Shown piece by piece: positions 601-63,861 of a DNA stretch of 64,000 nucleotides; the first letter of the stretch is position 1, and each line of letters begins with the position of its first letter. Made by a program: the position numbers and the translations under genes. The stretch is from an uncultured Acidobacteriota bacterium (GTDB taxonomy: Bacteria > Acidobacteriota > UBA6911). The DNA lies in contig CAWEJX010000020.1 of assembly GCA_963809485.1 (NCBI GenBank), positions 576,001 through 640,000 on the forward strand, written 5' to 3'. The notes under the pieces are model-generated. The model did no database searches. It was given only the letters and a program-made list of their open reading frames with translations, and was not told the DNA's origin.

Positions 601-813
601 GTCAGGCACCTCCGGCTTTGCCGGAGGCTTGAAAGATTTGAACCGCTCAAAACGGTTGGAGGAGTTACGCCGGTCTTGAACGCTGACTTACGCGGGCAAA
701 AGCCGAACAAATCGGCGTTTGTCAGCGCTTTTATCAGCGTTTCTCAGCGTTTCAAAATACGGAGCTGTCAAACTCTTTGAGTCCCCCGGCAGAGCCGGGG
801 ATTTACCAATGTA
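601..813 (-). mobile_element. Non-autonomous IS200/IS605-type palindromic element, copy 1 (internally deleted, 213 bp)
   Basis: Subterminal hairpins CCTCCGGC-ttt-GCCGGAGG and CCCCGGC-aga-GCCGGGG; near-identical to copies at 5887, 8344, 11445, 40313, 55425. Confidence 0.85.
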
Positions 814-5656: not shown

Positions 5657-5886
5657 CCTTGCCCCCTTTCACTCGTAACCAGTCCGATTGGCACTGGCAA
5701 AAAAAGCAGATCCGCCTTCCTGTATGATGACGGCTTCCGTTTCAGACGGCGGATTGAAATTGTACAGCAGAACAGCCAGCCGGGATTCGAAATTGTTGCG
5801 TTCCTGTGCCTTCAAAGCCCTCCGTTGCGAAATCCCGGATACAAAAGGATCTCAAATCCGAAAACAACTGAAATTCCCGGATTAAT

Positions 5887-6284
5887 TACATTGGTAAACC
5901 TCCGGCTCTGCCGGGGGACTCAAAGAGTTTGACAGCTCCGTATTTTGAAACGCTGAGAAACGCTGATAAAAGCGCTAACAAACGCCGATTTGTTCGGCGA
6001 GGGTCGGCGAGCAAAAGCCGATGAGGCGCTTCCGATGGAGTTTTCTGCGGCGGCACTGTGGCAAACGCCCGGTTTCTCATACCCTTCATCTCCTTGCCGC
6101 ACGGCGCTTGCCACAGTGCCGCCGCAGAAAACTGTCCAGCGCGGAGCGCTGGCCCCTGCGGGGATCGGAAGCGCCTCATCGGCTTTTGCCCGCGTAAGTC
6201 AGCGTTCAAGACCGGCGTAACTCCTCCAACCGCTTTGAGCGGTTTAAATCTTTCAAGCCTCCGGCTTTGCCGGAGGTACCTGAC
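5887..6284 (+). mobile_element. Non-autonomous IS200/IS605-type palindromic element, copy 2 (full length, 398 bp)
   Basis: LE TACATTGGTAAA + hairpin after TAAT; nested internal inverted repeats; RE AACCGCTTTGAGCGGTT + CCTCCGGCTTTGCCGGAGG ending in TGAC. Confidence 0.88.
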
Positions 6285-6291
6285 TCAAATC

Positions 6292-8088
6292 TCAGCCCGA
6301 CATCGGGCTCGCCTCCGCATATTTTCGGCTGAAATCCGGTATGGATGCCAGCTCGATATATCCTACGCGCGAGGCAATCTGCCGGGCAAGCGCACGCTGG
6401 CTGTCGGAAATGAGCGCCAGACGCGCTCCCGTCCCTGCCGCATTGCCGACCTGTTTGAAACGCTCCAGCGGCAGCGGAGGAAGCATGCCGATCGTTGTGG
6501 CGCTCTCCACGTCGATAAACGTTCCGAAGGCACCGGCGATAATGACGGTGTCGATCTGACCTTCAGTCAGGCCTGCTGCTTCCGCCAGCGTCCTTATGCC
6601 CAGGCGTATGGCGGCTTTCGCCAGCTGAAGCTCCCGCACATCCTTTTGGGAAACCGTAATCGCATCCTTCCCCGGGCGTTCCACGAGCACGAACTCCATC
6701 TGCCCGTCTGGATTGCGTACCCTCGGGTGCGGAGCCATCCGACCCGTGACGTCCAGGATATGGTTCAGCCGGAGCTGCGCCACGACGTCCAGCAAGCCGG
6801 ATCCGCAGATGCCGACCGCCGGTTCGCCGCCGATGGTCTGGACGTCCAGCCTGTCACCCGACAGGCGCACATGCTCGATGGAGCCGGGCGCGGCGCGCAT
6901 CCCATACTTGATGTGGGCGCCCTCGAAGGCCGGGCCGGAAGCGCAGGAAACGCTGGTCATCCTGCCGTTGTGGTTCAGGCATATTTCGGTATTGGTGCCG
7001 ATGTCGATGGCAAGCACCGTGGTTTGAAAATCGGCTATCTGCGCCGCCAGAAGCATGGCCACATGGTCCGCTCCGACATATCCCGCGATATTCGGCAACA
7101 GGTGCACATAGCCGCCCGGAGCGATGCGCAGTCCGATATCCCGGGCCTTGATATCCACCGCCGATCGAACTGCCGGCACATAAGGGGACATCCCCAGCTG
7201 AAGCACCGGCAATCCCAAAAACAGGTGATGGATGGCAGTATTGCCGACGACAACCGCTTCAACGATATCCGACGGGCTGGCTCCGATTTCGGCGCACAGG
7301 CCGGAGGAGGTCTGATTCAGAGCATCCACCAGCAGGGCCTGAAGCTTGGCCGCATTCGAGGGAGCTTTGCTGGCGGCATAGATGCGCGCGACCACATCCT
7401 CCCCATAAGAAATTTGCGGATTCATCAATCCTCTGGACCCGAGGGTTTTTCCGCTCTCCATATCCACAAGGTACGCGGCAATCTTTGTGGTGCCGATATC
7501 CACGGCCAGGCCAAGCCATCGCGTGGATGACGCACCCAACGCGACGATTTCGTTGCCGCGCAGAGCCACACACGCGTTCCAATCCGTCTCGCGCAGCCGC
7601 GTTGATAGAGTTTGCTGGACTCGCAAATCGATCAGCCCGGATGGCACTCCATGCCGCTGTGCCAGCGCGGCCCAGAGGTTCTGATCATCCGACTCCGGAA
7701 CTCCGAGAGAGGGGACCGCCGGCTGCACATTCAGCGTTCGCACGGGAGGTTCCGGTTTGACGGCAAGTTCCAGGCCCTCAACCTGGGTGCGTTGCGGAGC
7801 CGTCAGGGATTCCGGCAGAACGTGCACCGTCACATCGCTCCGGGGATAGGTCCGGCAGGCCAGGCGGAAGTTCTGCGACCGTTCGCTCTCCGTGAAGATG
7901 GATGCGTCTTCCGAAGTCCGTTCCGAGACCTCTCCGGATACAACCTGCACTTTGCAGTGGCCGCATGTGCCCGCCCCACCGCAAATGCTTACAAGGTCCA
8001 CATTGAGCTCGCGGGCGCATTCCAGCAGCGATTGATCTCCGGAGCATTCGCCACGACGTCCGACAGGCTGGAAATCTATATCAAACAA
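6292..8088 (-). CDS. ASKHA-domain reductive activator of corrinoid proteins (RACo, DUF4445) with N-terminal 2Fe-2S ferredoxin
   Basis: 'CGGAGTCGHC...RLAC' 2Fe-2S domain; 'AVDIGTTK', 'NPQISYGEDV', 'IDIGTNTE', 'SGPAFEG', 'ITVSQKDVRELQLAKAAI'. Confidence 0.92.
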   Translation of the reverse strand: MFDIDFQPVGRRGECSGDQSLLECARELNVDLVSICGGAGTCGHCKVQVVSGEVSERTSEDASIFTESERSQNFRLACRTYPRSDVTVHVLPESLTAPQRTQVEGLELAVKPEPPVRTLNVQPAVPSLGVPESDDQNLWAALAQRHGVPSGLIDLRVQQTLSTRLRETDWNACVALRGNEIVALGASSTRWLGLAVDIGTTKIAAYLVDMESGKTLGSRGLMNPQISYGEDVVARIYAASKAPSNAAKLQALLVDALNQTSSGLCAEIGASPSDIVEAVVVGNTAIHHLFLGLPVLQLGMSPYVPAVRSAVDIKARDIGLRIAPGGYVHLLPNIAGYVGADHVAMLLAAQIADFQTTVLAIDIGTNTEICLNHNGRMTSVSCASGPAFEGAHIKYGMRAAPGSIEHVRLSGDRLDVQTIGGEPAVGICGSGLLDVVAQLRLNHILDVTGRMAPHPRVRNPDGQMEFVLVERPGKDAITVSQKDVRELQLAKAAIRLGIRTLAEAAGLTEGQIDTVIIAGAFGTFIDVESATTIGMLPPLPLERFKQVGNAAGTGARLALISDSQRALARQIASRVGYIELASIPDFSRKYAEASPMSG

Positions 8089-8343: not shown

Positions 8344-8584
8344 GACAGGTACCGGCAAAGCCGGAGGCTTGAATGATTTGAACCGCTCAAAGCGGTTGGA
8401 GGAGTTACGCCGGTCTTGAACGCTGACTTACGCGGGCAAAAGCCGATGAGGCGCTTCCGATCCCCGCCCCTCGCCGAACAAATCGGCGTTTGTCAGCGCT
8501 TTTATCAGCGTTTCTCAGCGTTTCAAAATAAGGAGCTGTCAAACTCTTTGAGTCCCCCGGCAGAGCCGGGGGTTTACCAATGGA
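8344..8584 (-). mobile_element. Non-autonomous IS200/IS605-type palindromic element, copy 3 (internally deleted)
   Basis: Same ends as other copies; flank TGAT; interior truncated after ...TTCCGATCCCCGC. Confidence 0.85.
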
Positions 8585-8770
8585 ATCATAAGGCCATGAG
8601 CGACTTCACCTGCAAATATGGCGTCTACCGATCGCCCGCAGCTCTCACAGCTTTCACCCTGCAAGGCCCCAGGCGGACAGAGATGATCTCCAGAGCCGTA
8701 CGGTGAGCGAATGCCTGGTTGTGGCTTCAAAACCACTGCCCCGAAAGGGTTGAGGCGCGGGCAGGGGCAC

Positions 8771-11444: not shown

Positions 11445-11842
11445 GTCAGGTACCTCCGGCAAAGCCGGAGGCCTGTAAGATTTGAACCGCTCAAAGCGGT
11501 TGGAGAAGTTACGCCGGTCTTGAACGCTGACTTACGCGGGCAAAAGCCGATGAGGCGCTTCCGATCCCCGCAGGGGCCAGCGCTCCGCGCCGGACAGTTT
11601 TCTGGGGCGGCACTGTGGCAAGCGCCCGGTTTCTCATACCCTAAATCTCCTTGCCGCACGGCGCTTGCCACAGTGCCGCCCCAGAAAATTCCATCGGAAG
11701 CGCCTCATCGGCTTTTGCTCGCCGACCCTCGCCGAACAAATCGGCGTTTGTCAGCGCCTTTATCAGCGTTTCTCAGCGTTTTAAAATACGGAGCTGTCAA
11801 ACTTTTTAAGTCCCCCGGCAGAGCCGGAAGTTTACCAATGTA
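11445..11842 (-). mobile_element. Non-autonomous IS200/IS605-type palindromic element, copy 4 (full length, 398 bp), between trpC and trpF
   Basis: Same length and ends as copy 2 in opposite orientation; inserted right after trpC stop (TGA-T). Confidence 0.88.
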
Positions 11843-11843
11843 A

Positions 11844-12683
11844 TCAAGCAGCCTTCCCTCGTAACCGGAGCAAAGCTTCGCCCGGGGACGAAGCCCGTAT
11901 GAGCTGTTCTCCCACAAGGAATCCGATGTAGCCGGCATCGGAAAGCTTGCGTATATCCTCCGCGCTGCGGATGCCGCTCTCGGCGACGGCCGTCACCTCC
12001 CCGGGCATATTTCGAGCCAGATCCAGGGATACATCCAGGCGGACCTCGAACGTCCGCAGGTCGCGGTTATTGACGCCAATCAGTGTGGCACCCGTATCGA
12101 GCGCCCGCTGGAGCTCCTCCCGGTTGTGGACCTCGACAAGCGCCTCCATGCCGTAGCGTTCTGCGTCCTCGCGGAGGTTGCGCAGCCCTGAAGCATCCAG
12201 CAGTGCGGCGATCAGCAGTACAGCATCCGCCCCCGCGTGGCGGGCTTCCAGGATCTGGTAGGAATCTATGATGAAGTCCTTGCGCAACAGCGGGATTCTT
12301 GTGCTCCAGCGCAAACGGGCAAGGATCTCGAGTCCGCCCTGGAAGTGCCTTACTTCGGTAACCACGGAAACGGCGGCTGCGCCGGCATCCTGGTATTCGC
12401 GAGCGATCGATTCCGGATCAAAATCCTTGCGGATCAAACCGGCCGACGGCGACGCCCGCTTGATCTCCGCAATTATGGCCGGCCTGTGCCTCGCCAGCGC
12501 CTTCCTGAAGGACCGTATCGCAGGGGCGCGGTCCAAAACGCTTTCGATGGACACGGCGGGCAGCTTCTGACGGGCAGCTATGAGTTCACGCACTTTATCA
12601 TGCATGATCTTTTCCAGGATAGTGTCCCTGAGCGGATCAGGCAGCCTGTAATCCAATGACGTTTGCAGTTTGTTCGTGTTCAT
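11844..12683 (-). CDS. trpC: Indole-3-glycerol phosphate synthase
   Basis: 'IIAEIKRASPSAG', 'LLRKDFII', 'LVEVH', 'IGVNNRDL', 'VAESGI'. Confidence 0.96.
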   Translation of the reverse strand: MNTNKLQTSLDYRLPDPLRDTILEKIMHDKVRELIAARQKLPAVSIESVLDRAPAIRSFRKALARHRPAIIAEIKRASPSAGLIRKDFDPESIAREYQDAGAAAVSVVTEVRHFQGGLEILARLRWSTRIPLLRKDFIIDSYQILEARHAGADAVLLIAALLDASGLRNLREDAERYGMEALVEVHNREELQRALDTGATLIGVNNRDLRTFEVRLDVSLDLARNMPGEVTAVAESGIRSAEDIRKLSDAGYIGFLVGEQLIRASSPGEALLRLRGKAA

Positions 12684-17832: not shown

Positions 17833-18185
17833 ATCGAACGGTCTCCGGGAACAATTCGGGCCCACACCCTCTTAGGATATCACAAAGAAATGAATGGTGT
17901 TGCAGGCGGAGGTGCTGATTAACAGAAGTTTCAGCGTTCCTCAGCGCATTTTTCGGCGTAAGTCCGCGTTCCGGGATCCTGCAGCCTTCGATTTCCTTCA
18001 TTTTCCCGTCTTTGCCAGTGGTCCTGTCGATGACCGGATCTGCTTTTGAGCTGCACTATCGGCAGAAGCTGCGGATGCCTTTCCCCTGATCTAATCCAGT
18101 CGGGCCGCGATTGAGCTTGCCCGGCGCCATGGAATCGCTTATATAGTATTCAAAGCGCCGCGACTGCTGCGGGAGGGCATACGCC

Positions 18186-29801: not shown

Positions 29802-29898
29802 GTTCGTCAGCGCTTTTATCAGCGTTTCTCAGCGTTTCAAAATACGGAGCGGTCAAACTCTTTGAGTCCCCCGGCAGAGCCGGGGGTTTACCATTGTA
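29802..29898 (-). mobile_element. Partial palindromic element, copy 5 (left end only)
   Basis: gtcagcgcttttatcagcg...gagtcccccggcagagccgggggtttaccattgta; flank TAAT. Confidence 0.8.
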
Positions 29899-29941
29899 AT
29901 TATTTCACGATCAGGATTCGTGTCCGCTGTCTTGCCGTCCG

Positions 29942-32358: not shown

Positions 32359-32733
32359 GCTTTAGACCTCAGAGGCGCATCCGATACTTTTAAAGTCGAT
32401 GTTTGTCAGCGCTTTTTTCGGCGTCTGCCTGCGTTGATTGATTCCGAAACGGTCCATTGCCGAATATTCCCAGGCAAAGCTGGGAGATCGCCTATGCCTT
32501 TCACTCCCATGCGCCATTTGCCAGACGCCGACCTCCTGCCGCAACCTGGAATTGTACCACCTCTGACGACGGTTCATGAGGCTTAGGCCGCTTTCCCTGC
32601 GGGTTTTTACGGGAGGCGGAGTTTCCCGGCATCAAGTGTGTGCGGAACAATCGATTTGCCTGTTAGCAGTTTGATTCGAAATCCACTAAGATATCGACGG
32701 GCCATTGAGGCAGGACGCAAAGGAGTATCCGCG

Positions 32734-40312: not shown

Positions 40313-40545
40313 GTCAGGTACCTCCGGCAAAGCCGGAGGCAAGATTTGAACCGCTCAAAGCGGTTGGACTAGTTACGCCGGTCTTGAACGCTGACGTACG
40401 CGGGCAAAAGCCGATGAGGCGCTTCCGACCCTCGCCGAACAAATCGGCGTTTGTCAGCGCTTTTATCAGCGTTTCTCAGCGTTTCAAAATACGGAGCTGT
40501 CAAACTCTTTGAGTCCCCCGGCAGAGCCGGGAGTTTACCAATGTA
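40313..40545 (-). mobile_element. Non-autonomous IS200/IS605-type palindromic element, copy 6 (internally deleted)
   Basis: Same ends; flank TAAT; small deletion removes the RE guide. Confidence 0.85.
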
Positions 40546-40582
40546 ATTATGAGGAACCACCTATTTTCGGAGGCGGCTGGCC

Positions 40583-55424: not shown

Positions 55425-55647
55425 ATCAGGTACCTCCGGCAAAGCCGGAGGCTTGAAGGATTTGAACCGCTCAAAGCGGTTGGAGGAGTTACGCCGGTCT
55501 TGAACGCTGACTTACGCGGGCAAAAGCCGATCCTCGCCGAACAAATCGACGTTTGTCAGCGCTTTTATCAGCGTTTTTCAGCGTTTCAAAATACGGAGCT
55601 GTCAGACTCTTTGAGTCCCCCGACAGAGCCGGGGGTTTACCAATGGA
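55425..55647 (-). mobile_element. Non-autonomous IS200/IS605-type palindromic element, copy 7 (internally deleted)
   Basis: Same ends; flank TGAT. Confidence 0.85.
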
Positions 55648-55675
55648 ATCAAGGTTCCAACACACGTTCCATAGC

Positions 55676-63405: not shown

Positions 63406-63834
63406 ATGCTTCCAGAAATCGTGCGCACGGTGATATCCAGGTTGGCACAGACTGTCAGGGGGGATACGAAGGCCGGTCGACCGCCGCTGTTTCTCGGGTT
63501 TGAACATTCCGGGCTGTATCCGCTTCGCACGAACGCGAAAACCCTGGCCTCCTGGTACAGGGACACCTTCGGATTTGAACTCACAGAGGAAAATGCATCG
63601 TACTTTCTCTCCGGGGCGGGTGCGGGACGTCTCGAAATCATGAAAAACACTTCGGGGGAAGCTCATGTTCACATTGCGATCCACGTATCCGATTTCGAGG
63701 AAGCTGTCGCCGCCCTGCGTGCGAAAAACGTGCGGATGAGGGAACCCATACTCCAGCCGGACCTGAAAATCGTTTACATCGAGGATCCGGATCCCGAGGG
63801 AAATCCCGTGCATTTGTGGTGGAGCGGCAAGTAA
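63406..63834 (+). CDS. VOC/glyoxalase family protein
   Basis: 'GFEHSGL', 'WYRDTFGF', 'HIAIHVSDFE', 'DPEGNPVHL'; AAAGGA RBS. Confidence 0.8.
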   Translation: MLPEIVRTVISRLAQTVRGDTKAGRPPLFLGFEHSGLYPLRTNAKTLASWYRDTFGFELTEENASYFLSGAGAGRLEIMKNTSGEAHVHIAIHVSDFEEAVAALRAKNVRMREPILQPDLKIVYIEDPDPEGNPVHLWWSGK

Positions 63835-63861
63835 GTATGCTCCGGCAGAGCCGGAGGCTTT
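63831..63861 (-). repeat. Orphan IS200/IS605-type right-end hairpin (variant)
   Basis: Minus strand AAAG-CCTCCGGCTCTGCCGGAG-CATAC-TTAC, same architecture as the RE of the main family. Confidence 0.65.

Follow-up and report, generated by a model that had tools for sequence, protein, structure and literature searches.

Guide-directed target choice in the IS200/IS605 family

In the insertion sequence (IS) IS608 of Helicobacter pylori, subterminal hairpins on one DNA strand are each preceded by a 4-nt guide that pairs with a cleavage tetramer according to the scheme g1:c2, g2:c1 and g4:c4, g and c being guide and cleavage positions. At its right end these are the pairs T-4:A-34 and C-3:G-35, at its left end and target T-4:A+17 and T-3:A+16, and the third cleavage base, A-2, stays unpaired (He et al. 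2011, PMC3201880; Morero et al. 2018, PMC5934647). The guide rule has been presented as a property of the whole IS200/IS605 family (Quentin et al. 2018). Here we describe a 398-nt non-coding element at positions 5887-6284 of a 64,000-nt stretch of DNA (the window), which lies on contig CAWEJX010000020.1 (C20) of an assembly deposited as an uncultured Acidobacteriota bacterium (GCA_963809485.1; 6.04 Mb, 21 contigs, 95.7% complete, 7.3% contamination score). The element is very probably a non-autonomous deletion derivative, that is, a miniature inverted-repeat transposable element (MITE) or palindrome-associated transposable element (PATE), of an IS200-group member of the IS200/IS605 family with an IS608-like code.

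With IS608 the element shares the subterminal hairpins on one strand, the 4-nt 5' guide with all three pairs, T at c1 and A at c3, insertion 3' of the target without duplication, a preference at the base following the tetramer (+1), and targeting of the lagging-strand template. It differs in its guide/tetramer words, TAAA/TAAT and CAAG/TGAC instead of AAAG/TTAC and GAAT/TCAA, in the +1 base, which is T here and C in IS608, and in that both tnpA and tnpB are absent inside the element. The IS608 pairing code quoted in an initial annotation of the window, made from the letters alone, agrees with PMC3201880 and PMC5934647. The part of Morero et al. 2018 (PMC5934647) devoted to +1 preference gives approximately 70% C for IS608 and approximately 90% G for ISDra2 of Deinococcus radiodurans (TTGAT then G), whose G+1 is paired to a base of the guide region. 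Strong +1 selectivity is common to ISDra2 and the present element (T in 80% of copies), in which, with g3 being A, a similar pair may form; ISDra2 is unlike it in having a pentanucleotide target and tnpB.

For ISGst of Geobacillus stearothermophilus, Meers et al. (2023 preprint, PMC10055086) describe target and end motifs that covary with the DNA guides, minimal elements resembling PATEs, and a variable distance between motif and guide, so that covariation of guides with target motifs has already been reported, in 2023. The likeness extends to non-coding minimal elements that are, or here would be, mobilised in trans, to guide/motif covariation and to flexible spacing. Those elements are of the IS605 type with TnpB/IscB and guide RNAs and number about 50 copies, whereas the present one belongs to the transposase-only IS200 group, resides in a probably acidobacterial host and has about 320 copies. 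Repetitive extragenic palindromes (REPs) and REPINs (REP doublets forming hairpins), with their REP-associated tyrosine transposases (RAYTs), are similar in combining a hairpin that bears a 4-nt word at its 5' foot, a Y1 HUH protein and a high copy number; they are unlike it in their GT[AG]G words, their inverted doublets and the absence of both a set pairing of left with right ends and a target tetramer. Searches of the open-access literature (main texts) brought up no account of this acidobacterial element family. The IS608 rule, worked out on a single element by structural and mutational studies, also predicts where this unstudied IS200 lineage ends and what it targets, holds across approximately 50 natural variants from many phyla, and can serve to annotate such elements exactly, miniature derivatives included. 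Understanding of the mechanism is unchanged, and the element is a well-supported, ordinary new example of a known mechanism.

Anatomy of the element and its copies in the window

On the plus strand, the target or left cleavage tetramer TAAT (5883-5886) lies in the flank, outside the element. An 8-nt spacer leads to the left guide TAAA (5895-5898), which stands directly 5' of the foot of a subterminal hairpin with an 8-bp stem and a 3-nt loop (5899-5917). At the other end the right guide CAAG (6254-6257) precedes a second hairpin (6258-6276) of the same strand sense, near-identical to the first. The right cleavage tetramer TGAC (6281-6284), 4 nt 3' of this hairpin, forms the final four bases of the element, and the +1 T of the target (6285) again belongs to the flank. 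Folded as single-stranded DNA, the left end (5883-5935) reached -10.4 kcal/mol (z -3.74), matched by 0 of 200 shuffles, and the right end (6225-6290) reached -16.9 kcal/mol (z -5.64). Between the ends lies a long internal palindrome (6007-6193, strandless).

A BLAST search with 5883-6284 found seven copies in the window, six of them on the minus strand; six are complete (213-398 nt, all non-coding) and one is a left-end fragment. All seven left ends have the same layout, a 4-nt flank, an 8-nt spacer (TACATTGG, TCCATTGG or TACAATGG), TAAA and a GC-rich hairpin, and the six right ends consist of guide, 19-nt hairpin, 4-nt spacer and tetramer. In the window copies the two hairpins have the same strand sense, with loops TCT and TTT, and there are no terminal inverted repeats. 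TAAT flanks the element at 5887-6284 and three minus-strand copies: the short-form copies 601-813 (flank 814-817; right-end loop AAA, not TTT) and 40313-40545 (flank 40546-40549), and the left-end fragment 29802-29898 (flank 29899-29902). TGAT flanks three further minus-strand copies, the short-form 8344-8584 (flank 8585-8588; 3-nt deletion in the right-end hairpin), the long-form 11445-11842 (flank 11843-11846) and the short-form 55425-55647 (flank 55648-55651). Right ends read TGAC in four copies, TGTC in 8344 and TGAT in 55425. Every one of these flank and terminus counts had been given in the initial annotation and was reproduced. Of its right guides, CAAG was recovered in four copies and CAGG once, in 11445; in 40313 it had overlooked a 4-nt deletion that removes the guide, leaving CTTG.

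Short forms differ from long ones by deletions within the long internal palindrome, whose central loop occurs in either orientation. Of 92 long copies genome-wide, 68 carry the loop forward and 23 carry it reversed, with one unclear, and copies 5887 and 11445 are opposite to each other (6007-6193 versus 11536-11722), which suggests flip-flop inversion between the palindrome arms as the source of both orientations. The AAA loop of copy 601-813 (601-640, minus strand) looks as if the small right-end hairpin had itself been inverted.

Empty sites define the boundaries

A congener (G006), approximately 90% identical to the window and syntenic with it, lacks the element at four orthologous sites, where its alignment breaks exactly at copies 601, 5887, 11445 and 40313. 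Flank lengths at these empty sites are equal only for an element that runs from TACATTGG to CCTGAC with nothing duplicated, and only when the flank is taken to include both T[A/G]AT and the T after it; none of the four sites has a target-site duplication. The empty allele reads TAAT at the 5887 site and TAAT then T at the 11445 site. Copy 55425 is present at the orthologous site of the congener (84% identical), as is the fragment 29802-29898, which must be old because the G006 alignment runs through its place. The region of copy 8344 is unalignable in G006 and thus uninformative.

The same junction was found in nature. Of 20 metagenome runs with matches, each containing under half of the sampled words, four (labelled soil or wetland) were used here, and in all four contigs join 5886 to 6285 and skip exactly the 398 nt of the element, with 103-255 nt on the shorter side; TAAT is kept in these contigs, which differ by about 3% from the window. 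The 5887 copy is polymorphic in natural populations. The boundaries given in the initial annotation match the four empty sites and the contigs of four runs, save for one T that is taken up below. By the family rule, the cut would be placed 3' of TAAT and of TGAC. A Tc1/IS630-type MITE with TA duplication was also considered and rejected, inverted termini and duplication both being absent.

An autonomous IS200 element with the same ends

A locus in a record titled Terriglobia MAG (L046) carries an intact 629-bp element with a 143-aa Y1_Tnp gene (PF01797, 128.7 bits). Its left end consists of TAAT, 9 nt, TAAA and a hairpin identical to that of the miniature element; its right end consists of CAAG, a hairpin again identical, 4 nt and TGAC, followed by T. 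The internal motifs adjoining each hairpin are also common to both elements. The autonomous element is unlike the miniature one in its length and transposase gene, in its left spacer of 9 nt rather than 8, and in having no long internal palindrome. Another record contains eight identical IS copies, each with TAAT to the left and TGAC then T to the right, beyond which the sequences are unrelated, and in two congeners (L022, L026) degenerate transposase genes lie between ends that match the miniature element.

The genome itself contains four Y1_Tnp matches. An IS200-type gene with an in-frame TAG has a left end of the same plan (TAAT, 11 nt, TAAA, hairpin), and an intact ortholog of this gene stands at a different TAAT site in G006. 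For the L001/L025 IS, no convincing right-end hairpin could be defined. The TnpB profile PF07282 had no match in the genome, and an Rfam search of the window at gathering thresholds gave 0 matches; a TnpB/omega-RNA-bearing IS605 element was rejected on both results, as was a guide RNA or other known RNA family.

Three further transposase-like loci were noted. A 150-aa Y1 transposase-like gene (L002, G000:C15:224127-227471) has several unrelated GC-rich hairpins on either side, in the manner of REP-associated transposases. A 279-aa protein with a weak Y1_Tnp match of 42 bits (L004, G000:C20:1131501-1134830) represents a longer type that also occurs in most congeners, and a truncated 102-aa IS200-like open reading frame (L003, G000:C20:490861-494142) lies among repeated gene fragments.

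Target use and strand bias across the genome

Ends were collected from the whole genome by semi-global alignment of BLAST matches, and those in register were counted, giving 283 left and 250 right ends. They form 214 left/right pairs, of which the 211 that span <500 nt were counted as complete elements; these fall into two length classes, approximately 220-240 nt and 390-400 nt. The three remaining pairs, of 2.2-2.9 kb, are probably neighbouring elements, and the transposase matches lie elsewhere.

The flanks of the 283 left ends are far from random. The tetramer has T in 232, A in 206 (G in 57), A in 256 and T in 240 at its successive positions, whereas the ten positions upstream show no preference, so that the flank specificity asserted from seven ends holds genome-wide. 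TAAA is the left guide in 212/283 left ends; on the right, CAAG is the guide in 228/250 and TGAC the terminus in 211/250. Relative to available sites, TAAT was used at 163/20,721, TGAT at 38/50,908, TCAT at 2/48,746 and TTAT at 2/29,181. Use of TGAT is thus about tenfold below that of TAAT and more than tenfold above that of non-pairing bases, as a G-T wobble pair would predict.

The T[A/G]AT specificity given in the initial annotation needs to be extended by one base that it had missed: TGAC is followed by T in 200/250 right ends, while TAATT makes up only 25% of the TAAT sites in the genome. The element itself starts with T, too. This preference is an effect of the same type as the +1 preference of IS608 and ISDra2.

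Orientation is strongly biased. The elements are co-oriented with the local 50-kb GC skew in 240/322 cases (binomial p = 4e-19), with 77/81 on the minus strand of C20, 21/22 on the minus strand of C1 and 22/22 on the plus strand of C6, and on these three contigs the more frequent strand is the one expected from the sign of the contig skew. The G-rich strand is normally the lagging-strand template. The co-orientation therefore agrees with the preference described for the IS200/IS605 family, which is for the lagging-strand template.

The guide code in independent lineages

A protein search of named genomes yielded 80 related IS200 loci (L045-L124) from many phyla. For all of them the guide was defined by the same rule, as the 4 nt preceding an 8-nt hairpin arm on its 5' side, and the tetramer was allowed to stand 7-12 nt before the left guide or 3-6 nt after the right hairpin; this range gives the test some freedom, for which the shuffle control accounts. 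The predicted tetramer was present at 52/55 unique left ends, 9-11 nt 5' of the guide, and at 32/39 unique right ends, 4-5 nt 3' of the hairpin. On the left, 2000 guide shuffles averaged 18.8 and never exceeded 29; on the right, shuffles averaged 11.6 and reached at most 19. Across the 80 loci there are 12 left guide words, 9 of them with the predicted tetramer, and 10 right guide words, 9 of them with the predicted tetramer. The left pairs are TAAA/TAAT, TAAT/TAAA, AGAC/CTAG, AGAT/CTAA, AAAT/TTAA, AGGC/CTAG, AGTT/CTAA, AGTC/CTAG and AAAA/TTAT; right pairs include AAAG/TTAC, CAAG/TGAC, CAAT/TGAA, AAAC/TTAG, AAAA/TTAT and GAAG/TCAC. The misses comprise TAAC, GAAC and one out-of-register end on the left and seven ends on the right, six with the guide AAAG and one out of register.

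The two bases 3' of the right hairpin also track the guide, being AT with AAAG, T plus any base with CAAG, and AG with GAAG or GAGG. In IS608, these two positions take part in base triples with g1:c2 and g2:c1, according to PMC3201880 and PMC5934647.

Covariation within the genome

Under the scheme g1:c2, g2:c1 and g4:c4, TAAA predicts TA-N-T and CAAG predicts TG-N-C. Both were observed, all six Watson-Crick pairs are satisfied at the two ends, and the free position is A as in IS608; the TGAT flank fits the TAAA guide through a G-T wobble pair. Among left guides of the form N-A-A-N, the predicted partner accompanies three of the four possible g4 bases: A with c4 = T in 224/237, T with c4 = A in 14/17 and G with c4 = C in 2/2. 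The fourth base, C, does not fit and is dealt with below. Two single copies are natural covariants as well, one of the main subfamily with guide TAAG and flank TAAC and another with guide CAAG and flank TGAC; TAAC as a flank occurs at only 2/283 left ends.

An older subfamily (B) has the spacer TAAACTGG, a hairpin with compensating stem changes, and the guide TAAT or CAAT. Its flanks are NNAA in 19/24 rows (TAAA in 10, TGAA in five and other NNAA words in four), while it retains the CAAG/TGAC right end, as expected if the left guide alone sets the target.

The g4 signal runs in parallel with descent. Mutual information with flank position 4 is 0.229 for g4 and 0.237 for spacer position 5, and hairpin position 6 is equal too. 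Because flank position 4 tracks subfamily markers equally well, mutual information cannot isolate the g4:c4 pair, and for covariation we therefore rely on the independent lineages.

Guide position 3 is A at both ends, and judged from the letters a g3:+1 pair is possible. This leads to a five-position rule that would be fully predictive in this IS200 clade, in which the A at g3 pairs with the +1 T and the T at g1 accepts A or G at c2, with G penalised approximately tenfold. We put this rule forward tentatively, as rather less probable than not. If it were true, the left end by itself would reveal the target of any member; the 12 guide words found at left ends, 9 of them beside the predicted tetramer, would amount to evidence from nature that these elements are retargeted by single mutations in the guide; and the lone TAAG/TAAC copy would be an example of retargeting in the wild.

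Proposed mechanism and alternative explanations

By analogy with IS608 and ISDra2, a Y1 HUH transposase supplied in trans would bind both subterminal hairpins of the top strand during the single-stranded stage of that strand on the lagging-strand template. The 4-nt guides would pair with the cleavage tetramers, TAAA with TAAT (or with TGAT by wobble) and CAAG with TGAC, through g1:c2, g2:c1 and g4:c4, the third cleavage base being A. Cleavage 3' of both tetramers would free a single-stranded circle and leave the donor resealed without a scar. The left guide would then capture a new TAAT, preferably TAAT then T, and insertion would take place 3' of the tetramer without duplication.

A number of observations weigh against this interpretation or limit its support. 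No intact cognate transposase was found in the assembly, itself 95.7% complete, and the best transposase match there is 52% identical and carries the in-frame TAG. The hairpins stand at distances from the cleavage sites (12 nt 5' and 8 nt 3') that differ from those of IS608 (19 and 10). One letter at the boundary is ambiguous, since a T begins the element and a T follows it, and fits either side. The GC skew on which the strand argument draws is weak (0.00-0.03). Within the genome, covariation is statistically inseparable from subfamily descent. The right-guide variants CAAA (3), CAAT (3), TAAG (3) and AAAG (2) keep TGAC in 9/11 cases, the two other copies ending in TGAT and TGCC, so that the right ends of this genome lend covariation no support; these variants look like decay. 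The guide CAAA is not enriched for TGAT (4/11 versus 34/177, Fisher p = 0.24). Finally, among N-A-A-N left guides g4 = C is accompanied by c4 = G in 0/11 (T in 8, A in 3), and TAAC without its predicted partner recurs in the foreign locus L047 and in four subfamily-B copies. The TAAC guides are the one clear exception to the code and reflect either recurrent mutation after insertion beside a C run or a tolerated mismatch.

We also considered whether the TAAC-guide copies form one clade. The eight in the main subfamily have no other diagnostic base in common, and descent is neither supported nor refuted. An A-to-C or T-to-C change at the guide base beside the C run, with the flank unchanged, recurs in both subfamilies and in the unrelated genome of L047.

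The TAAC misfits, together with the confounding of within-genome covariation with subfamily descent, could be taken to mean that the fit to the code is coincidental, the target being read by protein or TAAT being part of the element. This is highly improbable: TAAT stays behind at empty sites, nine left and nine right guide words from unrelated hosts occur with the tetramers they predict, far more often than when guides are shuffled, and the single TAAG copy lies beside a flank, TAAC, that is otherwise so rare. An equally slight chance attaches to the idea that these are not a MITE of an IS but repeats of the REP/REPIN type, acted on by a domesticated RAYT. The genome does encode a RAYT-like 150-aa Y1 protein flanked by hairpins, and the copies are numerous and mostly intergenic; yet the hairpins flanking that gene (L002) are unrelated in sequence, with no BLAST match to the element, and the 5' words are TAAA and CAAG, not GT[AG]G. 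Moreover, the two ends are distinct, directly oriented and equal to the ends of an autonomous IS200, and presence or absence is precise at a defined target.

A third alternative accepts the anatomy and the code and disputes only present activity: the family would be a fossil, its copies immobile after loss of the transposase. We rate this close to, though slightly short of, an even chance. It is favoured by the four Y1_Tnp matches, none of them both cognate and intact and the nearest with the in-frame TAG, and by the many copies with damaged ends, such as the guide and hairpin deletions in 40313 and 8344. Pointing the other way, many long copies (398-402 nt) are 98-99% identical to each other, four window copies are absent from the 90% identical congener and the 5887 copy even from contigs of approximately 97% identity, and right-end matches number 166 here against 26 in the nearest congener; in addition, an IS copy could be unassembled in an assembly of 21 contigs and 95.7% completeness. 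Because the assembled genome lacks an intact cognate transposase, the element family may now be at rest in this genome.

Distribution and genomic context

The approximately 320 copies (322 elements) amount to a lineage-specific burst in what is apparently an acidobacterial soil or wetland organism, the 211 complete elements totalling 63.8 kb or 1.06% of the genome. A 24-nt right-end pattern, with one mismatch allowed, has 166 matches here, 26 in G006 and 7, 2, 1 and 1 in four other congeners, and is absent from 24 of the 30 genomes searched. Over window positions 5870-6292, summed contig depth in all four metagenome runs is hundreds to thousands of times higher over the element than over its flanks; this depth is the sum over all copies of all organisms, and related copies must therefore be very numerous in these soil and wetland metagenomes.

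The prediction that the flanks begin with a stop codon is true as a pattern and has a limited bearing on genes. The TAA or TGA of the flank ends an open reading frame of at least 100 codons in only 37/217 copies, compared with 6.3% of random T[AG]ATT sites, a control that includes sites inside genes and makes the enrichment soft.

A second IS200 lineage and other repeats

On the minus strand at 63831-63861 lies a solo right end composed of AAAG, a hairpin, ATAC and TTAC, which the initial annotation had read as a compensatory guide/tetramer pair. It was right in kind, but the end belongs to a different lineage. Right ends of this type (AAAG, hairpin, 4-6 nt, TTAC) are found on intact IS200 elements in three congeners and at many foreign loci, and by this resemblance the orphan is the right end of a sister lineage under the same code. 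The copy on its own is weak evidence, its fold (63861-63831) being weak as well (z -1.68). The genome has ten AAAG hairpins; in an alignment of nine of them, five fall into a second short repeat family (approximately 150-190 nt), and four, including the orphan, share the hairpin region only. At the spacing of the orphan, TTAC is present in only 2 of the nine and TT-N-C in 4.

Members of the second repeat family lie at C1:140934, C8:143854, C9:94599, C17:86835 and C19:19532; they end in the AAAG hairpin and carry AT-rich repeated 'cgaat(a/t)tcgaa' motifs upstream of it. Elsewhere in the window, at 17928-17970 and 32393-32500, there are diverged relatives of the 'AACGCTGA'-type repeated motif found inside the element, and the one at 32393-32500, which adjoins a hairpin, probably represents the decayed remains of an old copy of some related element.

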